Source: a virus
Lineage: Duplodnaviria; Caudoviricetes
DNA length: 38,725 nt
IMG/VR virus record: IMGVR_UViG_3300044940_000463
Coordinates: 1 to 38,725 of that record
Strand: one strand, 5' to 3'
Position 1 is the first letter of the stretch. The number at the start of each line of letters is the position of its first letter. The notes beneath the pieces are model-generated. The model did not search any database, was not told the origin of the DNA, and saw only the letters and a list, made by a program, of their open reading frames with translations. The position numbers and the translations under genes are program-made. Positions 325 through 26,923 of this stretch are shown here, one piece after another.

Positions 325-2067
325 ATGTTTAGTGTTTCATTTAGACGTATAAATACCAAAAATATTGAAACTATAAATGTACCATACCCTAATATTATTA
401 GTTGGAATATACAACAAAATAAGTATGGTTCATTAAAAGCCACACTTAAAATTACAGGCTCAATTTCTTTACTTTCTTTTTTTTACGAAAATGATTATGT
501 TCTAGATGTTCAATTTTTTTGGAGAGGTATTTTAATATGGCGTGGGCGAACAGAAGCTGTTAAACTTACCCCAACTACAGTAGAAATTACAGCATTAGGT
601 TATATACGACTTTTCGCAGAACGTAAAACATTTAGTTTTTATTCCAGTACAGATTTAACACAATTTTTTGTAGTTGATCCCACTATTATAGGTGGTACAA
701 ATACTCCTTTTAAATATAATGTAAATATTAGCGATAGTTCTCTTTATTTCAGTTTAAAAAAGAATATTAGTTATAATAATTCTGCAAACCCAATTTATTT
801 AGCTTTTAAATTACCCCAACGTCTAATAGATGTTCCTGCTAGAGTGCAATTTAAGGTAACGTTTAATCTACCAAATAATTGGGTTTTACAATTAAATTCA
901 ATCAATTCTGGTTTTGCTACTATTGCTACAGAGTTTACTACTACAGCTACAGGAGTTCCTACTACAATTTGCTATTGCGATAATCTAAATCCTAATGTAT
1001 ATACTATTATGTTTTTTATTTTTAATAATACAGGTGGGGTTTATAATAACACTTTAGATGATGATGTATGGTTTGTTCGAATAACTGATTTTAGATTAAT
1101 TACAACATCAGGTAGAAATGTTGATACTACCTTGACAAATTCTGTAAATCCCGGTTCTCCTGCTACGTTTCCCGTAGCTAGTACTGCTAATATTTATGTT
1201 GGACAAAAACTAACGATAGCTTCAAATACAACAGCATCAGAAATTGTAACTGTTTTAAGTGTTACAGGATCTAGTTTTACAGCTAATAACACTACATTTA
1301 AACCTAATGGATCTACTGTACGATCTGCTTCTATGTATGCTGATGATATTATTAAAAAGCTAATTAGTGATGCTTCTAATAGTACTCCTTTACAATCTAA
1401 TATTGTTAATATTTTACCAAATAATTTAGATGTATTTAATTTAATTACTTATGGGGATAATGTATTGAATGTAATTGAAACATTAACTACACAGGGGGGT
1501 AATAGCAATTCTAATTGGAATTTTTATATAGATAATACTATTACCGCACATTTTAAACCTATATCAGCATTAAATACACGAAACTTTATTTTATATATTA
1601 ATGACTTTAATATTCAACGTTTATTAGAAACATTAACTGCATATTCTATAGTTATTTTTAAAACAACTTATGGAGCACAACACCGTACTTTTTCAAAGGC
1701 TAATCCAAATCTCCCTTTATTTGGGAGCGGCAAAACAAATGTAATTAAAATAGATAGTACATCTCAAGCTGAAGCTGAGCAAGTGCGTGAATTAGATTTA
1801 ATTAATAATGGGCTTATAAAAGCTCAAACAAGTATTCAAATTGAGTTTATGTTACTTAATTCAATTAAAGCAGATATTTTTGATCCTCAACCTTATGATA
1901 CATGTACCATTGCTAATTTACCTTTAAGTGCTAGCCCTGTTATTAACAGTGTAAAAACATTTAGAATTAGTGAAGTTCATGTAGATAGCTCAGGAACTAT
2001 TAAGCTTATACCCGATTTACCTATTCCTGGTTTAGAATTTCTTCAAACCAGACAGTCTTTTGGGTAG
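325..2067 (+). CDS. Tail tip / baseplate hub (Tal-like) protein with internal beta-rich insert
   Basis: 580 aa, second gene after the tape measure. Hub-like N-terminus (IWRGRTEAV...EITALGY) and a Thr/Asn-rich middle. Confidence 0.65.
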   Translation: MFSVSFRRINTKNIETINVPYPNIISWNIQQNKYGSLKATLKITGSISLLSFFYENDYVLDVQFFWRGILIWRGRTEAVKLTPTTVEITALGYIRLFAERKTFSFYSSTDLTQFFVVDPTIIGGTNTPFKYNVNISDSSLYFSLKKNISYNNSANPIYLAFKLPQRLIDVPARVQFKVTFNLPNNWVLQLNSINSGFATIATEFTTTATGVPTTICYCDNLNPNVYTIMFFIFNNTGGVYNNTLDDDVWFVRITDFRLITTSGRNVDTTLTNSVNPGSPATFPVASTANIYVGQKLTIASNTTASEIVTVLSVTGSSFTANNTTFKPNGSTVRSASMYADDIIKKLISDASNSTPLQSNIVNILPNNLDVFNLITYGDNVLNVIETLTTQGGNSNSNWNFYIDNTITAHFKPISALNTRNFILYINDFNIQRLLETLTAYSIVIFKTTYGAQHRTFSKANPNLPLFGSGKTNVIKIDSTSQAEAEQVRELDLINNGLIKAQTSIQIEFMLLNSIKADIFDPQPYDTCTIANLPLSASPVINSVKTFRISEVHVDSSGTIKLIPDLPIPGLEFLQTRQSFG

Positions 2068-4543
2068 CAAATTCCTTTAACATAGGTGGATTATCAAAAA
2101 ATCTTTTACTTATATCCACATCAACTTGCCAGGGTACTTCAGGGAACCACTGCTCTGCAACAGCGATCATTATCTGTTGGAGAATACTAGCTCCTAATTC
2201 AGCCTTATCTTCATCACACTCACAAATAATACTATCGTGAATGAGATGGATTACAGTTAATGGATTATCTCCGAATTCTACTAAATAAGCTGCTCGTGTG
2301 TTTAAATCTGATGCTGCACCCTGAATAGGCGCATTGACTGAAGCTTTTTTAACTTCATCAAGGTTTGCAGCACTAATAAGTGGAAAATGGCGTTTACGCC
2401 CTAAGCGGCTTTGTACATAACCGTTCTTTCGGGCAAATCGAAATTGTTCCATCTGCCATTGCATAGCTATTGGCATTTCTGCTTTAGCTTTTGCTAAAGC
2501 TTTTTCAAGAACATTAGGGCTAATCTCAATTCCAAATCCATGTAACATTGCTAAAATACCATGAACCCCACCCAAATAGACTAATCCCCCGAAATTAATT
2601 TGTTTTGCTATTTGCCTAAGATATTTAACTTTAGCTTTATGCTCTTTATTTTCTATTTCACTGAGATCTTTAATTGTCAAATATGCAGGATCAATAGCTT
2701 GTACATCAAATGTTAAGAAACGTTGTGCTCCTAATAAATGTACATCCTCATTATTTTTATATGCATTTATTAGTAAAGGTTCTTTCGATAAAGCTGCAAA
2801 TACTCTAAGCTCAGCTTGAGAATAATCAGCTTTAATAAAAACTTTACCTGGACGAGCTATGAAGGCTCCTTGTATCATTTGTCCATATATATCCTCAGCA
2901 CGAGGAATACTGTGCAAACCCCCATCAGCACTTAATCTACCAGTTTCAGTACCCTGCACATTGAAATTAATATGAATAAGATTATCAGGATCAAGTTTCT
3001 CTAAAAGCGCTGTAGCATAGGTACTTAGAAATTTACTAACCCTGCGATACCTACGTAACGCAATCACAAATGGATGGTTAGGTAATGCGTCTAAGCTTTC
3101 TTTATTTGTGCTGAGCTTGTTCGATTTATAGCTCAGTTTTTTAGTATGCTTTAATTCCAATGCATAAAACAACACCCAACTCATTTGAGTATCAGAATTA
3201 GGATTGAAAACACAACTATTAACTACTTCTTCACTAGTAGGGGGTAATAAATATTTCTCGTTTTTATAAAATGGGGAGCCTATAACCATCGATCCTTTGT
3301 AAGCTCTTGTAAAAATTTCCCACATTTGTTCAGTAAGTTGATCCAACTCCGCTTGTAAACGTAATTCTACTAACTCCAAATATTTTCGATCTATTTTAAT
3401 TCCACGAGCTTCAGCTCTTTGTAATACGGCTGAAGCTTGTAAATTTGTTTCATAAGCAGTTAGTACTTGATCAGCAACAACCATAGGATAAAGAACATGA
3501 AATAAACCTAGTGTTGCTACTCCATCATATGCTGCATACTCATATAAAAGTTTTTTAGGGAGTTTACTGTATTTTCGATTTTCTTTTGTATACCCATATG
3601 CCTCAAACCAACCCTCAATAATACTTTCGTAATCAGGAGCTTTTAAATAAAGTGTAGCAAGCTCTTTAAGACTATGTCCCCCTCTTACTTCTTTGAGTAC
3701 TCTACTCATTAATAGGGTATCATGATCTATTTTTGGAGTAGGATAATTTCGGCCAAAGCCATTTTGATCAAATTTACCATTATGCGCAATAACAGTTAAA
3801 GAATGTAACTTTTCTAATAATAAATACACACGGTCTTGATTTAATATTTCAGATGGAATAATAAAAGATCGATCTAATTCAAATGTAATTACAATACACA
3901 ATAAAAGTGCAGGTGGACTAGATCGATTACCCCATAAATTAAGATTATCTGTCTCAATATCAAAAGCTATCGGAGTACCTGGCTTTAATGTATCTAAATG
4001 AGCTATAAAATAATCCCAATTATCAGAAGTTACTACATAAGTTTGTATTTTATCCCATGCAATTTCTATTTTTGGTTTTTCTAAGCTTTGAAAAGTTTGA
4101 ATAAACGAATAAATCAATCCGGGTTTATACGTAACATGCATAGGAGCATGTGTAGCTATATGCTCCCAATCTATAACTGTTAATTGTTCTGAAGCAGTAA
4201 CACCTAATGCTACAGTTGGAACTGATATATCAGCAAGCTCAGTTAATTCGTGAAGTAAGCCGCCACGACACGCCTCAATAGCCTCAACTGGGGGTTTACC
4301 GAAGGATCGACACGCAACACAGCTAAGCTGAGCTACTTCATTCAGCTTAAAACCTGATGCATTTAATACTTCTTCCATTACCCGATAGGCATCGCCACCC
4401 AACGGTTGGTTGTCTAATATAGATCGGGGAGCAACTTGATCAATAACTAAAATCAAGCTAGGATCATTTGGGATAACCGAAGATACATATTCGTTAAATT
4501 GAAGTGGACACGCTGTGCAATTTGATCCTACGCGCTTGCTCAT
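2021..4543 (-). CDS. polA: Family A DNA polymerase with N-terminal UDG family-4-like domain and 3'-5' exonuclease
   Basis: Exonuclease motifs FDIET, HNGKFD, YAAYD; GTETGRLS; motif A DYSQAELR, motif B KQINFG, motif C IHDS. N-terminal CxxC...C...C and VALG. Confidence 0.95.
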   Translation of the reverse strand: MSKRVGSNCTACPLQFNEYVSSVIPNDPSLILVIDQVAPRSILDNQPLGGDAYRVMEEVLNASGFKLNEVAQLSCVACRSFGKPPVEAIEACRGGLLHELTELADISVPTVALGVTASEQLTVIDWEHIATHAPMHVTYKPGLIYSFIQTFQSLEKPKIEIAWDKIQTYVVTSDNWDYFIAHLDTLKPGTPIAFDIETDNLNLWGNRSSPPALLLCIVITFELDRSFIIPSEILNQDRVYLLLEKLHSLTVIAHNGKFDQNGFGRNYPTPKIDHDTLLMSRVLKEVRGGHSLKELATLYLKAPDYESIIEGWFEAYGYTKENRKYSKLPKKLLYEYAAYDGVATLGLFHVLYPMVVADQVLTAYETNLQASAVLQRAEARGIKIDRKYLELVELRLQAELDQLTEQMWEIFTRAYKGSMVIGSPFYKNEKYLLPPTSEEVVNSCVFNPNSDTQMSWVLFYALELKHTKKLSYKSNKLSTNKESLDALPNHPFVIALRRYRRVSKFLSTYATALLEKLDPDNLIHINFNVQGTETGRLSADGGLHSIPRAEDIYGQMIQGAFIARPGKVFIKADYSQAELRVFAALSKEPLLINAYKNNEDVHLLGAQRFLTFDVQAIDPAYLTIKDLSEIENKEHKAKVKYLRQIAKQINFGGLVYLGGVHGILAMLHGFGIEISPNVLEKALAKAKAEMPIAMQWQMEQFRFARKNGYVQSRLGRKRHFPLISAANLDEVKKASVNAPIQGAASDLNTRAAYLVEFGDNPLTVIHLIHDSIICECDEDKAELGASILQQIMIAVAEQWFPEVPWQVDVDISKRFFDNPPMLKEFATQKTVWFEEILNQE

Positions 4544-4544
4544 A

Positions 4545-4952
4545 TTATTCCTTAAAAAAGTGTTGTAAGTGGTTTTTTAGATACTGAAAAGCATTATCAA
4601 CATCAGGCCCATAATCAATACTTAAATTAAAAAGTATCTCTTGAAGCGCAACTTTAATAAACGCATCTTCTGATGGAAATTGGGGATTAAAAATTGTAGC
4701 TTCACCGGCACGTTTTTCAGCGCGTAACATACTCTTTTTTACTAAACGTTGCGCAATTGTTTGAATTGTTGTATACGCAAGATACGAACCATAAAGATCG
4801 TTTATTTCACGTTGAATAGTACTAATAGTTCGACAACCACCCCAAACTGCTACCATTAATTTAGCTTCCAATTCCCCCATAAATTTTTCTAAACCTGGTT
4901 TATGTGGGCGAACATGAGTACATCGAAACACAACATCAGCACTCATCTTCAA
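4545..4952 (-). CDS. BlaI/MecI/CopY-family winged-helix regulator
   Basis: GELEAKLMVAVW...LAYTTIQTIAQRLVKKSML matches the family pattern. Confidence 0.85.
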   Translation of the reverse strand: MKMSADVVFRCTHVRPHKPGLEKFMGELEAKLMVAVWGGCRTISTIQREINDLYGSYLAYTTIQTIAQRLVKKSMLRAEKRAGEATIFNPQFPSEDAFIKVALQEILFNLSIDYGPDVDNAFQYLKNHLQHFFKE

Positions 4953-11254: not shown

Positions 11255-11734
11255 CTAACGCTTTCTCTTACTCCTGTTTTTCTGCATTGCAATAAAGTAA
11301 CAGAGATGTTTATAAGCATCTGTTATATGTTTACTTTTAAGTAATATTTTGTGTTTAGGTGGAATAGTACAATTAAGTCGTAAATTGGCTCCTTGCATTC
11401 TAATCCGATCCCCCCAATTCAGTAACTCTGCGTATACCGTTATGCGCTCAATAAGACGAGGAACCGGCATATTCGACCACCCTTGACTTTCAGCTTTATA
11501 TGGATATAAGCGGTATTCTTCAATAATAATAGCAGCTAAGTACAATTTTCCTTCTTCTTCTTCAGTTTTTAATTGTTGAAGAGCATAATAAATATTAGAG
11601 CGATTACTCCATAATAATTCACCTGCATACGTAAGATCAAAGGAGCGTGTAGAAAAATCTACACGCTCAGCGATAACTACTCCTGTAGTAATACCTGGAT
11701 CAAACGAAATTATAGCAATATTAGAAGTAAACAT
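11255..11734 (-). CDS. RuvC-like (RNase H fold) Holliday junction resolvase
   Basis: ISFDPGITTG, IIIEEY, HITDAYKH. Confidence 0.75.
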   Translation of the reverse strand: MFTSNIAIISFDPGITTGVVIAERVDFSTRSFDLTYAGELLWSNRSNIYYALQQLKTEEEEGKLYLAAIIIEEYRLYPYKAESQGWSNMPVPRLIERITVYAELLNWGDRIRMQGANLRLNCTIPPKHKILLKSKHITDAYKHLCYFIAMQKNRSKRKR

Positions 11735-11739
11735 TAATC

Positions 11740-11913
11740 TTAAAAATTCCCTATATATCGAATAAGTAAAAAGAAACCAAACAAATCTAACGTACCAACA
11801 AACCCTACAAGTACCGCTATAATCTGTTCATTCTCATTTACAGATACAAGAGGTACCGTAGGGGTTTCTGAGCGGCTATAAAGCCGCTCTGTATCCCCTG
11901 TATACGGCATCAT
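11740..11913 (-). CDS. Small 57-aa membrane protein (not in the ORF track)
   Basis: ATGA overlap with the upstream stop; MMPYTGDTERLYSRSETPTVPLVSVNENEQIIAVLVGFVGTLDLFGFFLLIRYIGNF; fills the gap almost exactly. Confidence 0.65.
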   Translation of the reverse strand: MMPYTGDTERLYSRSETPTVPLVSVNENEQIIAVLVGFVGTLDLFGFFLLIRYIGNF

Positions 11914-12494
11914 TTACTTTCCTTAATTTTATTTCGATATTTAAATGCTTCAACAAGGTGTTCAGGTTGAATTACTGTTTCGTTAGCAAGGTCGGCAATA
12001 GTACAGGCTACCTTAACAAAAAACTCTAACTCTGACTGTTGCAAAGCTAATTGTTTTACAGCCCGATTAAGCAAATCCTTGCATTGAGGGGTTATAGTTA
12101 AGTTGGGCTTTTGTGAACGAGATTTTACCTGCTTTACCCTCTTTTTAACCGTAGCTGTATCTTCAGGAATATCTTCAGACAGAAGTTCACTAGGCTTAGG
12201 CAAACCCATATACACGCACATATATATAGCAGAGGGAAATGTCCGTATTACATGTTTTTGTTGCTGTTCTAGGGTACAAAAACATGGATAAATATCACTA
12301 CCCCAATGCCCGCACGGGCAAGAAGTTAAAATATAAGGATCATATTCAGCGAGTGCGAAAAAAGCAGGGCGCATAATAAGTTGTGCATCATTATATGCAT
12401 CTGTAACAATAATTGCCAACCGATGATCACCTGCTGCAGCTATCTCCATAGCCCGTTTAATATGTGCTTGACCTTTGATATTTGCGAAATCCAT
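11910..12494 (-). CDS. Internally deleted YifB/ComM (Mg-chelatase-related) homolog
   Basis: DFANIKGQAHIKRAMEIAAAGDH, CPCG...CFC and VACTIADLA...HLVEAFKYR are present; no Walker A or B. Confidence 0.8.
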   Translation of the reverse strand: MDFANIKGQAHIKRAMEIAAAGDHRLAIIVTDAYNDAQLIMRPAFFALAEYDPYILTSCPCGHWGSDIYPCFCTLEQQQKHVIRTFPSAIYMCVYMGLPKPSELLSEDIPEDTATVKKRVKQVKSRSQKPNLTITPQCKDLLNRAVKQLALQQSELEFFVKVACTIADLANETVIQPEHLVEAFKYRNKIKESK

Positions 12495-12523
12495 GACTAT
12501 TCTCCTTAATTACAACTTGTACC

Positions 12524-13261
12524 CTAAAGGTTCCCAACCTTTTTAGCACAAACCGGGCCAATACCCTTTATAATACTTTCAGGTGTTGTTAATAGCCGAT
12601 TACAAACCCAACAACGTCCACTTTCTAGGGCATAGGCTGTGCCCATATCGATCCTACCTTGTTTATCTGCCTTGAGAAGAGCAAAAAGCGCTGAAGCTAG
12701 AACTGTATCGCTTTTAAATCGTTTAAACAAATTAGCCGAACGTCCTTGCACAAAAGCAAACCCGGTATAATCACTTTCATTATTTAAGCCGCTCAGATAA
12801 CTCGCAATCTGCGTACCCTTCGGTTGATTATACGTTGCAGCTTGCTCCGCATCTAATGTAGTAATTTTGATTGTCCGATAAATGCCCGTTTCATCTAGAA
12901 CAATCGTATAAATTCCATCAAGTAGATCACTTTCAACTACAGTAGGAGACAGGCTCTCTCTTTCAATCTCATCAGTTTCAATAGATTGTGGGGCATTGCG
13001 TAGCATATCATTCAAAGCACACGCAATCTGCCTGTTTGTCAGCCGTCCTTTCCGCTTATGTTGGGCCTTAAGGCTGTTCATAAACTCATTAGAACCATTG
13101 TAATACTGTACGTACCAATGCCCCACATCCACTAGTGTTTTCGACAGCTCAACATGAGTAACAAGAATACCATCGGGAAGATGAACAGCCCGCTTGAGCA
13201 CTTGTTGCACAACAGCCGCGTTAAAGTCGAAAGGTTCCGCAAATTCGATGTGAGTAGTCAT
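12524..13261 (-). CDS. DUF6011-like zinc-ribbon protein
   Basis: C-terminal CWVCNRLLTTPESIIKGIGPVC. Start moved to ATG 13261 behind AAGGAG, because the longer start lies inside the promoter. Confidence 0.75.
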   Translation of the reverse strand: MTTHIEFAEPFDFNAAVVQQVLKRAVHLPDGILVTHVELSKTLVDVGHWYVQYYNGSNEFMNSLKAQHKRKGRLTNRQIACALNDMLRNAPQSIETDEIERESLSPTVVESDLLDGIYTIVLDETGIYRTIKITTLDAEQAATYNQPKGTQIASYLSGLNNESDYTGFAFVQGRSANLFKRFKSDTVLASALFALLKADKQGRIDMGTAYALESGRCWVCNRLLTTPESIIKGIGPVCAKKVGNL

Positions 13262-13299
13262 TGGAACAGTCTCCTTAGTGGATTGCTTAACTTGAACTA

Positions 13300-13328
13300 A
13301 GTATAGCATATTAAAGCTTACTTGTCAA
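13300..13328 (-). promoter_or_regulatory. Sigma70 promoter with extended -10
   Basis: TTGACA-N17-TATACT. Confidence 0.9.
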
Positions 13329-17085: not shown

Positions 17086-18492
17086 TTATATACTAAAACC
17101 ATCAAGCACTATGGGTTCAGTACCCGTAAGCAGTAACCATCGATCAAAAATATTATTGCAAGTATCAGGATCAATTTCCCCCGTAAAGCATGTTTTTCCT
17201 AGCGAATGACAAGCCCACAATGTTTGCCCCGAACCTGCAAAAGGATCTACAACAAAATTAGAACTCCCTGCGAAAAGTTGAATAAGCCAAAACATGTATT
17301 CAAGTGGCTTACGTCCCCGGTGATCTGTGTGTTCAGTTTCACTTTGCTTAATACTTACTCGTTTAAGATCTTGTGAATTAAACATTATGGAAGTATCAGG
17401 CCACGCAAAAAGTGCTGTAGGGATATGGTTTCCAAAACCTAAATCACCCCGTGTCATACCATTATCGATATAACACGTTAACAGCCACCGGTACGGCATT
17501 GTAGTACATTTTGCAAAATCAAAAAGCGATCGTGTACCGGGAGTTACACACACATATTTAGCAATGTCAATTAAGTAATCATGTTTCCATTTAAAGGACT
17601 GATCCCAACTATCGGCTCCAACCCCGTATGGCGGATCAGCAAAAGCAAATTCACAGAAGGGCAGCTTGCCCCAAAAATCGGGTGTGCTTGTATCGCCACA
17701 GAAAAGCCGGTGACGGCCTAGGGCATACCATGTCCCTACTTTAGCCCTGATGCTCGTCTGTGGCCGTTCTAAGGCCGTTTCTGAGGATGTTCGGAGCCTT
17801 TTGATTGCAGCGCTTGTTTCACTTTTCTTGAGTAGTGCTCGTGCTTCTTTTAATGTGTCAGCCTCTCCGCTACTAAGCATTGTCACAATCGCTTGTCTCT
17901 CAGCTTCAGGCAGTGCAGCTAATATCTTGAGATCAGATGCATTATCAGCTATTGGAGTATCACGTAATACATCAGCTAAAGATCTTAATGCTTCTCCTAA
18001 AGCTGTTTTACGTTGAATAGTACGAGAACTAACTTTAAGTTTTGCAGCAGCATCTTCACTAAAACTAGGAACTTTGGGTTTCAAACTGTCACGTTGTCGG
18101 CTTGATCTACGATCCCCGCCGTGGGCCGTTTGAGGATATTTTTCCAAATATAATGCTTTTCTACGAGCTAACTGAACTGCTTGTTCTAATTCTGTTAATT
18201 CAGATCGAATAAGGTTTTCATCAATTTCGGCTAACTCGTAATCTTGTTCAGTAGGGAACTGAAGTAGCACAGCATCAATGTATTCCCAACCTAAAATTTT
18301 AACAGCCTCTAATCGGTGTAAACCATATACAAGTTCAAATAAATTTGTAGTACTTTTTCGCACCCCAATAGCACTCATTAAACCTAATTCACGAATACTT
18401 TCTGCCAGCGCTTGTGCTCGTTGCGGATTTACCGTCCGTTTTCGGTCAGTTACCGTAATGTCTTTGATGTGAACAGTAATTAATTCATTCAT
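17086..18492 (-). CDS. ParB-like N-terminal domain fused to a beta-class DNA amino-methyltransferase
   Basis: LAESIRELGL, YGLHRLEA, IDENLIR; HTH; then DPPY and DPFAGSG. Confidence 0.88.
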   Translation of the reverse strand: MNELITVHIKDITVTDRKRTVNPQRAQALAESIRELGLMSAIGVRKSTTNLFELVYGLHRLEAVKILGWEYIDAVLLQFPTEQDYELAEIDENLIRSELTELEQAVQLARRKALYLEKYPQTAHGGDRRSSRQRDSLKPKVPSFSEDAAAKLKVSSRTIQRKTALGEALRSLADVLRDTPIADNASDLKILAALPEAERQAIVTMLSSGEADTLKEARALLKKSETSAAIKRLRTSSETALERPQTSIRAKVGTWYALGRHRLFCGDTSTPDFWGKLPFCEFAFADPPYGVGADSWDQSFKWKHDYLIDIAKYVCVTPGTRSLFDFAKCTTMPYRWLLTCYIDNGMTRGDLGFGNHIPTALFAWPDTSIMFNSQDLKRVSIKQSETEHTDHRGRKPLEYMFWLIQLFAGSSNFVVDPFAGSGQTLWACHSLGKTCFTGEIDPDTCNNIFDRWLLLTGTEPIVLDGFSI

Positions 18493-23982: not shown

Positions 23983-25503
23983 TTGATGCAAAATAGTAAA
24001 GTACAATTAATTGAGCGAATTAAAGAATTAGAAGATGCCCTAGAAGGTTGGGAGCGATTAGGTGGGGGTGTAGATCAAGAATTAACTCCTGAAAGTATTA
24101 AGGAGATTGCACGTCGTGCCCGAATTTTTTATCTTAAAAATCCACTGGTTAATCGTGGGATTAATGTTAAAGCAGATTATGTGTGGGGTAGAGGGTTAAA
24201 TATAAATGCTCCAAATCCTGAACTAAATAAAGTTATTCAGTCTTTTCTTGATGATACAAATAATAAAGCTGAACTAACCACACAGCAAGCACGTATTCAA
24301 AGAGAAATTGAATTACAAACAGATGGTAATTTATTTTTTGTTTTATTTGTACATCCATTGACAGGTTCAGTTCGTGTATCATTTATACCTTTACATGAAA
24401 TTGATGCAATTATACCCGATCCTAATTCACGAAATAAGAATATAGCTTATAGACGAGTTTATACTGTTCAGGATTGGGATTTTAATACTGGTACGTATAA
24501 AAATGTACAGCATACAGAATATTATAAAGACTGGCATTTAACTGAAGATCTTATGATCGGCGATAAGCCTGTGGTATCTAATGCCGTAGTATATCATGTC
24601 AAGATCGGTGCATTTAGTGATTGGCAATTTGGGGTAAGTGATATATATGCAGCTTTAGATTGGGCTAAAGCTTATACTGAATTTTTAAGCAATTTTGCAT
24701 CAATCGTAGCTGCACATAGACGTTATGCATGGGAACTAACTGCTAAAGGTGGCGCACGAGGTGTGCAAGCTGCTAAACAACGTTTGAGTACAACTATAGG
24801 TGATCCAGGAACAAATCGTTTTGATACAAATCCTTCATCTGTTACTGCTGCTACATTCATTACTACTGAACCAGGTACTCTAACTCCTGTAAAAACAGCA
24901 GGAGCTACCACCCCAGCCACCGAAGGTAGGCCATTGAAGCTTATGGTAGCAGCAGCACAGGGTGTGCCTGAAACATTCTATGGAGACGCTGATGTAGGGA
25001 ACCATGCCACAGCAAAAACACTTGATCGGCCTACTGAATTAGGGTTTACTAATCGTCAAGAATTATGGAAGCAGATATACGCTGATATTTTGGATTATGT
25101 TGTGTTGTGCGCAGTTAAGGCTCCGAACGGCCCATTAACCCCATATGGCAGAATTGAAATAAATGAATATAATGAGCCATATGTAGTGTTTAAAGAAGGT
25201 TTTGATCGTAGAATTAGTATAGATTTTCCGCCATTGCTTGAACGTGATACAGAAGCATACATTAGAGCACTCATTAGTGCCTTTACATTTGATGGTAAAC
25301 AGCTTACTGAATATTTTGCAGCAGATCCACGTTATGTAATAAAGCTTTTATTAACGGCTATTGGAGAAAATAATGTAGATGAAATTTTAGATCAATTGTT
25401 TTCAGATTGGGAAGATGTGGAGACCGAACAAGATTTAATGCTTGTCTCTGAAGCAGCTAAAGAATTAGCCCAGGCTATTAAAAATGCTCAGCACACCACA
25501 TAA
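23983..25503 (+). CDS. Portal protein
   Basis: Size and position; NPLVNRGI, DGNLF, FGVSDI, GVPETFYG...NHATA. Confidence 0.88.
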   Translation: MMQNSKVQLIERIKELEDALEGWERLGGGVDQELTPESIKEIARRARIFYLKNPLVNRGINVKADYVWGRGLNINAPNPELNKVIQSFLDDTNNKAELTTQQARIQREIELQTDGNLFFVLFVHPLTGSVRVSFIPLHEIDAIIPDPNSRNKNIAYRRVYTVQDWDFNTGTYKNVQHTEYYKDWHLTEDLMIGDKPVVSNAVVYHVKIGAFSDWQFGVSDIYAALDWAKAYTEFLSNFASIVAAHRRYAWELTAKGGARGVQAAKQRLSTTIGDPGTNRFDTNPSSVTAATFITTEPGTLTPVKTAGATTPATEGRPLKLMVAAAQGVPETFYGDADVGNHATAKTLDRPTELGFTNRQELWKQIYADILDYVVLCAVKAPNGPLTPYGRIEINEYNEPYVVFKEGFDRRISIDFPPLLERDTEAYIRALISAFTFDGKQLTEYFAADPRYVIKLLLTAIGENNVDEILDQLFSDWEDVETEQDLMLVSEAAKELAQAIKNAQHTT

Positions 25504-26923
25504 AGATCAAGCTATTTTATTATTAGAAACCATACACGTTAAAAAGACTATTCGGATTTTACAGCCTTATGAACGCAAATTAGCACGTGGTATACGAACA
25601 GTTTTTAATAAACAATTAGCAGAGTTGCTAGCTGTTCTTGAACGTTCTTATCAATTACAAGAAAGTGATGTTAAAAATGATATTGATCAAGCATTAAGTA
25701 GTGTAAACACATTTTTTGCTAATTTGCTTAATAAAGCTGTTAAGGAAATTATTAAAATAGGTGCATTAGCAGCTATTGATCAATTACAATTGGGTATTTC
25801 ATTTGCTATTGTTAACCCTCTTGTTGTTGCGTATTTGAAAAATTATGGGGGAGAGCAAGTTACACGAATTAATGAAACAACACGTAAAATAATTGCAGAT
25901 ATTGTAACTACAGGCATTCAAAACGGTACACCTTACACTATTCTTGCGCAGGAATTGCGTGATAAATTTCGTGAATTTTCAACACCTATTAAAAGACCGA
26001 AACATATTAGGGATCGTGCAGAATTAATTGCTGTTGATCAATTAGCGCGTGGATACCAATATGGTAATTATGCTTCAGTACAAACAGCAAAAGATGTATT
26101 AGGTATACAGTTTGAAAAAAAGTGGGAAACTGTAGGCGATGATCGGGTATCCGATGGTTGCAGGGAAAATAGCAACATGGGTTGGATACCCATGGAGCAG
26201 GAGTATCGTAATGGAGTAGTAGTTCCCCCACGTTTTCCTGGCTGTCGTTGTGCTGAAGCGTATCGAAGGATAAAATCTGATCCTAACCTTTCTAAACAAG
26301 AATTAAAGCAACTTAAAGATACTTCACTACCTGTTCGATCATTTAGTTCAGGTAGTGAAGCTGATGAATACTTTAAAAAGAATAGGTTACACAAAAAATT
26401 TAATATTGAGCAACTTAATGTTTTAAATTTTTATCAAGCTAATGGTTATGAGCAAATAAATGGTTATCTCCGTGGTTTAACAATTCCTAGAAATAAAGAA
26501 GCATTAGATTATAATATTGGCATACTAGATAAAATGTTTAAAGCTTCAATCTTAAAAGATAATATACAAGTTTATCGTGGGTTAGGAGCAGATATAGATG
26601 ATCAGTTAGCAATACAATTTATGGAAACTTTAGTACCAGGTATAGTATTTCAAGATAAAGGATATACATCAACTACAGTAGATCCGGCTGTAGCAGAACG
26701 GTTTGGGTGGGGTACTGCTTCAAGTAAATTTCTTAATACAGTTAGTTTAACCATTAAAATACCTGCAGGCACTCCTGCACTTTATATGCCTACTGTAAAT
26801 CCTAATAAGCTTACTCAGGAGAGTGAATTACTTTTACCCCGTGGTACGTTGTATAAGGTAATTAGTAGAGAAGTTAAAAATGGGGTAACATATATAGAAT
26901 TAGAGGTTATTCCTAATGCGTAA
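25484..26923 (+). CDS. MuF/SPP1 gp7-like minor head protein fused to a VIP2-like ADP-ribosyltransferase
   Basis: RAELIA, KKWETVGDDRV, PPRFPGCRC; then INGYLRG, VYRG, GYTSTT, QESELLLPRG. Confidence 0.9.
   Translation: MLSTPHKDQAILLLETIHVKKTIRILQPYERKLARGIRTVFNKQLAELLAVLERSYQLQESDVKNDIDQALSSVNTFFANLLNKAVKEIIKIGALAAIDQLQLGISFAIVNPLVVAYLKNYGGEQVTRINETTRKIIADIVTTGIQNGTPYTILAQELRDKFREFSTPIKRPKHIRDRAELIAVDQLARGYQYGNYASVQTAKDVLGIQFEKKWETVGDDRVSDGCRENSNMGWIPMEQEYRNGVVVPPRFPGCRCAEAYRRIKSDPNLSKQELKQLKDTSLPVRSFSSGSEADEYFKKNRLHKKFNIEQLNVLNFYQANGYEQINGYLRGLTIPRNKEALDYNIGILDKMFKASILKDNIQVYRGLGADIDDQLAIQFMETLVPGIVFQDKGYTSTTVDPAVAERFGWGTASSKFLNTVSLTIKIPAGTPALYMPTVNPNKLTQESELLLPRGTLYKVISREVKNGVTYIELEVIPNA

Follow-up and report, generated by a model that had tools for sequence, protein, structure and literature searches.

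What would a phage gain from a piece of the host recombination helicase ComM that has lost its motor? The question is raised by a short gene in the window (the whole stretch of viral DNA analyzed here, 38,725 nucleotides), whose product, which we call a mini-ComM, has been regarded as an ATPase-dead derivative of ComM/YifB and a candidate decoy. The decoy role is still the best reading of this protein, although the likelier target is the set of ComM partners (the DprA winged helix and YraN) and not ComM itself.

The window represents a tailed phage, with genes for portal, capsid, tail tube, and tape measure proteins. Its ends are joined by a 185-nt repeat, and two metagenome runs carry it as 38,570-nt contigs with differing starts, so the genome is probably complete. 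The runs that contain the phage are hot-spring or microbial-mat metagenomes, possibly from a single source, and no RNA datasets are listed among them. No phage variants were seen in four runs of one sample; a loose 39-nt match in those runs was judged from its flanks to be the comM of another organism. A Chloroflexota host is likely, because a 48% match to the phage portal occurs in one of 401 genomes of Chloroflexota, the one phylum searched, and because its mini-ComM is placed with the Chloroflexota-type minis (97/96). The best match in a terminase search for a host hint was at 42%, to an archaeal virus record. No integrase was found among the 42 ORFs scanned, an N6/N4 DNA methyltransferase with a fused ParB-like domain is encoded at 17086-18492 (minus strand), and a BlaI-like repressor gene lies at 4545-4952; a plasmid-like prophage state is therefore possible. 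Elsewhere, the phage encodes a Mu gpF-like head morphogenesis protein fused to an ADP-ribosyltransferase domain (25484-26923, plus strand) and a family A DNA polymerase (2021-4543, minus strand) whose N terminus is weakly uracil-DNA-glycosylase-like (E 0.005, below the cut-off).

The mini-ComM gene sits amid replication and recombination genes (Sak4-like, PD-(D/E)xK exonuclease, SNF2 helicase, and RuvC-like). The relevant features are as follows, with residue numbers referring to the mini-ComM protein.

13300..13328, minus strand: near-consensus sigma-70 promoter match, TTGACA-17-TATACT with a TG extension (consensus match only)
12524..13309, minus strand: gene for a DUF6011 protein, 261 aa, upstream of mini-ComM (Pfam)
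12502..12507, minus strand: Shine-Dalgarno sequence AAGGAG, 7 nt ahead of the ATG (sequence)
11910..12494, minus strand: mini-ComM gene (P0001), 194 aa (Pfam, phmmer, TIGR00368, AlphaFold2 model)
12429..12467, minus strand: first helix, residues 10-22, HIKRAMEIAAAG, conserved across the mini family (alignment and model)
12381..12407, minus strand: degenerate P-loop, residues 30-38 (alignment to ComM)
12330..12356, minus strand: deletion junction, residues 47-55, in place of ComM ~233-344 (alignment)
12276..12320, minus strand: C4 zinc knuckle, C59-x-C61 ... C71-x-C73 (alignment to ComM)
12048..12089, minus strand: lid helix 1, residues 136-149 (alignment)
11913..11966, minus strand: C-terminal helix and tail, residues 177-194, HLVEAFKYRNKIK (alignment and model)
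11740..11913, minus strand: 57-aa ORF with an ATGA overlap with the mini-ComM gene (ORF call)
11255..11734, minus strand: RuvC-like resolvase gene (Atlas model, TM 0.68 to a RuvC cluster)

The reading frame is uninterrupted from 12494 to 11910, and the Shine-Dalgarno site that had been noted is indeed present. The promoter match heads a unit made up of the DUF6011 and mini-ComM genes; the DUF6011 gene is not kept beside other minis. Four near-consensus sigma-70 matches lie within 4 kb on the minus strand of the phage (10800-10828, 11205-11233, 13300-13328, and 14226-14254), two of which have in common a 51-nt repeat at 78% identity. Of the proposed translational coupling to the next ORF, the ATGA overlap stands, but the coupled ORF specifies a 57-aa peptide, not a nuclease. 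The C-terminal stretch of this peptide is hydrophobic, and it has no Pfam or NCBIfam family. The RuvC-like gene is the next one downstream, and the idea that the mini recruits ComM to this nuclease found no backing, since blastp detected no homologue of it in fetched DNA from 30 other mini loci. No neighbor gene is conserved across 31 mini loci, which suggests that the partner of the mini is probably not encoded nearby.

Descent of the protein from ComM/YifB (TIGR00368, PRK09862) is clear from profile and pairwise alignments. Pfam places Mg_chelatase at residues 2-29 (E 1.5e-7) and Mg_chelatase_C (PF13335) at residues 121-187 (E 1.9e-11; 44.8 bits against a cut-off of 26), the two families that the original prediction had named. 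With phmmer, residues 1-46 and 56-189 correspond to residues 189-232 and 345-498 of Legionella ComM (8rxd). These alignments map the deletions to the Lon domain (ComM 1-188) and to the AAA+ core, from which about 110 residues are absent. TIGR00368 matches in three pieces with 70 bits, short of the family cut-off of 362.4 over ~500 aa; judged by these scores, the protein is not a ComM/YifB by family membership. An AlphaFold2 model built from 84 relatives has a pLDDT of 94.8 and a pTM of 0.91, and its residues 1-191 superpose on ComM 189-500 (Z 15.4; rmsd 2.2 over 174 residues). PHROGs holds no family matching the protein, a word-index homologue search returned one other protein only, and a locus search with it as the query gave no matches. 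The sole name given by protein-cluster look-ups is “predicted ATPase with chaperone activity.”

The description of the protein as ATPase-dead was borne out: the Walker A site reads IIVTDAYNDAQ, and Walker B is absent. The junction removes the H2i hairpin, Walker B, the sensor-3 arginine, and the PS1 hairpin (residue roles according to the accessible part of PMC11612176), and the trans-acting arginines (R316, R381, and R463 in Legionella), like the two hairpins, are deleted or replaced. From these motif losses, ATP-dependent hexamer and helicase activity are predicted to be absent. The C4 knuckle is a predicted zinc site, by reference to the ComM described in PMC11612176. E. coli YifB (L161, 950-2470) is without three of the four knuckle cysteines, so some full-length proteins can do without this knuckle.

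The same architecture, which the original prediction proposed to look for in other phages, recurs widely. A full HMMER scan gave 1,452 matches to the family, and many of the best 150 of these are 185 to 260 aa long, collinear, and 25 to 37% identical. The distance from the KRA motif to the zinc knuckle is bimodal among the 136 top matches in which it was measurable (40 to 49 aa in 75, 140 to 149 aa in 26). Taken together, the alignments describe a large, diverse family of ComM/YifB derivatives of 150 to 290 aa with a deletion of ~100 aa of the AAA+ core in common. Carriers are phages and mobile islands of Chloroflexota, Planctomycetota, Omnitrophota, and others, and the three nearest Atlas cluster rows (133, 94, and 142 members) are 65 to 83% viral. 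A motif scan of viral DNA found 20 loci on 17 contigs, 15 of them with a mini or near-mini; in genomes, it found 28 loci (16 minis, 10 full or partial ComM, and 2 without a match), and in metagenomes it found 31 (30 minis and one broken comM). The genome matches fell in Planctomycetota (10), Chloroflexota (3), Omnitrophota, Victivallales, and one Zixibacteria bin, and several genome minis adjoin island genes (RadC, DUF6094, ArdC, or integrases). In 401 Chloroflexota genomes, a set that includes genomes marked unpublished, 2 of the 150 best matches, ahead of 585 further ones, span the mini profile, which indicates that the mini is not a core gene. Cultured or deposited phage records gave 5 weak tblastn matches with spans fitting full-length comM, plasmids gave 12 partial matches with none covering 80%, and a BFVD fold search gave a single match at E<=0.001, a 478-aa viral protein.

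Several forms depart from the common type. Tandem double minis (P0030 and P0054) have a degenerate tail on the second copy, three minis of 148 to 166 aa (P0052, P0130, and P0137) are also without the PS-II helix, and two (P0107 and P0117) have an N terminus that is weakly SymE-like, below the cut-off. On two related viral contigs of ~146 to 149 kb, a class I (Trp/Tyr) tRNA synthetase is encoded near the mini (L011, 4646-5764; L014, 10728-11732).

The relatives are under purifying selection. In 9 of 10 pairs of relatives, none of which includes P0001 (it has no close relative), dN/dS was 0.10 to 0.32 and thus not near 1; the remaining pair was saturated. With the frame of P0001 intact as well, the view that the gene is not a decaying pseudogene held up.

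We classified 202 rows, including 105 minis, 74 full-length proteins, and 22 intermediates. Because rows had to carry CxCG, the first Arg, and the terminal ExxxY to pass the filter, the invariance of these is partly built in and was not counted as evidence. The Lon ring is gone from the minis. The Walker B aspartate is found in 0/105 minis and 74/74 full-length proteins, the sensor-3 arginine in 0/105 versus 69/74, the LLDRID arginine in 9/105 versus 68/74, the SAR arginine in 16/105 versus 68/74, and the Walker A lysine in 39/105 versus 74/74. Retention of Walker A differs by clade: 0/46 Chloroflexota-type, 18/19 Planctomycetota-type, 5/7 Omnitrophota-type, and 13/33 unassigned minis have it. 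On the opposite side of the ledger, L141 is kept in 96/105 minis versus 55/74 full-length proteins, and A145, H179, and H24 are kept in 93, 91, and 91 of the 105 minis, respectively. The position of L149 is a leucine in 76/105 and otherwise mostly F, Y, or M.

The minis appear to have arisen more than once. All 13 MAG-assigned minis with a reference phylum scored best against their own phylum's ComM (two marginally, and after the filter had dropped three genome minis); scores for P0001 tie between Chloroflexota and Omnitrophota ComM. In a 38-row tree of 18 of the 105 minis and 20 of the 74 full-length proteins, with rows hand-chosen after the own-phylum scoring, three mini clades each lie beside the ComM of their host phylum. 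The Omnitrophota minis form the sister group of Omnitrophota ComM (99/96), those of Planctomycetota are nested within Planctomycetota ComM (96/91 and 98/97), and a 99/99 branch places the third clade on the Chloroflexota side. No row has diverged more than P0001, with a branch of 2.39. A single mini clade was rejected on this tree (AU p 0.0007); with the lid helix 1 and C-terminal columns removed, the grouping stays, with lower support (p 0.07). A FastTree of all 202 rows groups most minis with one another and away from full-length ComM, at weak support; we read this as long-branch attraction, and the same result stands against several origins. At least three origins of the mini form are the likelier reading of these trees, not a settled one.

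What has been kept points to partners. Contrary to the original prediction, in which oligomer surfaces were retained, the retained parts, as judged from the alignments, are partner surfaces. The kept Mg_chelatase_C face corresponds to the docking site of the DprA winged helix on ComM and to the predicted site for YraN. According to the accessible part of PMC12012524, the winged helix of DprA binds the Mg-chelatase domain of ComM via L455 and R497 and so recruits ComM, and L455 of V. cholerae ComM is needed for this binding; Dataset S1 of the same paper gives AF3 ipTM values of 0.89 for the Chloroflexus DprA/ComM pair and 0.76 for that of Rhodopirellula. For YraN, two-hybrid binding to ComM is reported in the available text of 10.1101/2024.02.06.579203, and a coevolution study (10.1101/558379, likewise as far as available) predicts YraN-PF13335 as a domain pair. 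L454 and R496 of E. coli YifB, 42 residues apart as are L455 and R497, align to L149 and K191 of P0001. Through this numbering step, we infer that L149 is the counterpart of V. cholerae L455 and K191 that of R497, which gives P0001 a leucine at the first position and a basic residue at the second. A basic residue at the R497 position occurs in 24/105 minis and 25/74 full-length proteins.

In nine pairs of a mini and its own host's ComM, lid helix 1 is 55% identical to the own-host protein, compared with 33% to other phyla and 37% between full-length proteins, with the limit that seven pairs are from Planctomycetota and six of those are closely related, which leaves about three or four independent lineages. 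In the same nine pairs, the P-loop, beta-5, and sensor-2 regions fall to 37 to 43%, from 68 to 79% between full-length proteins. The Omnitrophota pair agrees at 16/17 positions in lid helix 1 and 13/16 in the C-helix but at 7/20 between them. The linker/PS-II region is host-like too (39% versus 16%), and when group-diagnostic columns are counted, agreement is as good in the first helix (38/68) as in lid helix 1 (32/64); the host-likeness of the docking helix may come from descent and fold constraints. The genes for the presumed targets are present in hosts of the relatives, the host of the P0001 phage itself being inferred: ComM is over the cut-off in 12/15 mini-bearing genomes, with an unsplit match in 11/15, DprA was found in 10/10 mini-host genomes tested, and YraN was found in 5/5. 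DprA_WH is present in 37 of 46 Chloroflexota, a count that takes in genomes marked unpublished.

We assign a probability of about 0.55 to the reading that the mini is a folded, motor-less ComM fragment acting as a decoy for the ComM partners DprA and YraN, binding to which is putative. The mini retains the outer docking face of ComM and would act as a soluble decoy, occupying the C-terminal winged helix of host DprA (the most likely target) and perhaps also YraN, a nuclease; loading of ComM or YraN on recombination intermediates by the host would thereby be prevented. Expression would presumably start early, driven by the sigma-70-like promoter. Islands would gain by being cured less often through transformation; for this phage, host helicase and nuclease would be kept off its single-stranded and D-loop DNA. 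The effect would phenocopy comM insertions, which protect islands from curing (AbaR; accessible parts of PMC11441513 and PMC12378983).

The host-likeness of the docking helix, the catalytic drift, the selection, and the presence of the targets in hosts are all counted for the decoy. Besides the limits given above (few independent host pairs, host-likeness beyond the docking helix, the infrequent basic residue at the R497 position, and the divergence of P0001), three observations are counted against it. Walker A, which a pure decoy would seem not to need, is kept in nearly all Planctomycetota-type minis. According to the accessible part of PMC6158740, V. cholerae expresses ComM poorly unless it is competent and does not need it for repair, which puts the gain for a nonintegrating phage in doubt. 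Finally, in one genome (G406), a mini lies in an island adjoining an already split comM. In that genome (L196, 2275-5307; L197, 6538-7224; L198, 259-1665), the host comM is split near codon 65-69, and the 5′ piece is followed by a serine-recombinase gene that is interrupted by a transposase. The island has a second mini-ComM along with OLD/UvrD and McrBC-type genes; we take the OLD/UvrD pair to be Gabija-like.

Among the alternatives, co-option fares best, though we consider it unlikely: the mini would capture host DprA or YraN for the element's own recombination or restrain them where the element broke comM. This draws on the same kept surface as the decoy and fits the location of P0001 amid phage replication and recombination genes and the G406 island, where a mini lies beside a comM split by a serine-recombinase element. 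However, the mini has no second domain with which to anchor a partner on DNA or on a phage protein, N-terminal extensions vary, no phage partner gene is conserved, and most mini-bearing genomes have the unsplit comM match over the cut-off noted above.

Ranked below it, and improbable, is a different target that docks on ComM (for example, other DprA-type winged-helix proteins, such as regulators or island proteins) or repurposing of the fold as a zinc-stabilized DNA-binding or regulatory protein. Roughly half of the minis have a basic helix following the zinc knuckle (R369 position, 53/105), but conservation at the positions that contact DNA is lower than in ComM (K or R at the K373 position in 43/105 minis versus 73/74 full-length proteins), and every host genome checked for DprA or YraN encodes it.

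We give still less credence to a dominant-negative subunit that joins the ComM hexamers of the host or caps them, the ring poisoning of the original prediction. The ComM fold is kept, tandem double minis exist, and the Walker A of most Planctomycetota-type and Omnitrophota-type minis could give a one-sided ATP-binding cap. As described in the accessible part of PMC11612176, however, the ComM ring is built by the Lon and ATPase domains, with catalysis by E302, trans contacts via R316 and R463, and DNA contact via the H2i and PS1 hairpins; the Mg-chelatase C domains, the part the minis keep, encircle the ring and make no mutual contact. Available portions of PMC6158740 and PMC11612176 further indicate that ComM is monomeric until ATP and DNA are present and that Walker A mutant ComM loses DNA binding. 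With the Lon ring, both pore hairpins, Walker B, and the trans-arginines deleted or drifted, and with Walker A also missing from the Chloroflexota-type clade, ring poisoning is unlikely.

That the minis are neutral relics of captured or disrupted comM is very improbable: partial-deletion intermediates (22/202 classified rows) and the one broken comM among the metagenome matches (L194) exist, and comM is a frequent insertion site of mobile elements, but the frames are intact at low mutual identity with equal deletion size, the dN/dS of relatives largely refutes the idea, and the gene in this phage has a product with a confident predicted fold, a Shine-Dalgarno site, and no integrase nearby.

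A broader proposal, which we regard as doubtful and offer tentatively, is that Chloroflexota and PVC bacteria have in DprA-ComM-YraN an unrecognized module against phages and islands and that their viruses have, at least three times independently, cut the comM of the host itself back to the same docking platform; this would be a counterdefense decoy, with a DprA-binding helix that stays matched to that of the host. A mini that binds DprA or YraN would be a ready-made inhibitor of the recombination step and a natural map of the partner surface of ComM. It offers a test of why ComM, DprA, and YraN persist in phyla with little known competence, and a nonintegrating phage that pays for a decoy would point to an antiphage role of this machinery. 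One deletion that apparently arose repeatedly, from different host genes, would be a clean case of convergent pseudoenzyme evolution. The literature searched, in which subscription journals are little covered, contained no description of a truncated phage ComM and no diffusible protein that blocks the recombination step, silencing by comM insertion being already known; a preprint on phage antidefense proteins does not mention ComM.

How does the mini compare with known systems? Like ComM/YifB, it has the N-terminal helix, beta-1, the zinc knuckle, beta-5, and the Mg_chelatase_C lid, collinear with ComM 189-500, but it is without the Lon domain, Walker B, pore hairpins, and trans-arginines (about 190 versus 500 aa), and ComM/YifB is chromosomal and core, whereas the minis are on phages and islands. 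It retains the ComM domain involved in the DprA-ComM (PMC12012524) and YraN-ComM (10.1101/2024.02.06.579203) interactions, as far as the accessible parts of these sources describe them; there, the surface recruits an active helicase, whereas that of the mini is motor-less, with binding predicted only. Insertion into comM (AbaR, accessible part of PMC11441513) reflects the same conflict, with likely the same outcome. As in other transformation inhibitors, minis are encoded on phage contigs and islands, and hosts of the relatives have ComM, DprA, and YraN. The table of such inhibitors in the available part of PMC12378983 names the RocRp sRNA, ComI, Paratox, Rok-LS20, and PfsE; those described there and in PMC11441513, within the accessible text, work by insertion, RNA, regulation, or uptake block, and none is a ComM protein mimic at the recombination step. 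Phage mimics of host proteins, such as Ocr and antitoxin mimics, are the closest in kind: the mini is likewise a stripped host interaction surface, but its target differs, and it was apparently re-derived from each host lineage's own gene.
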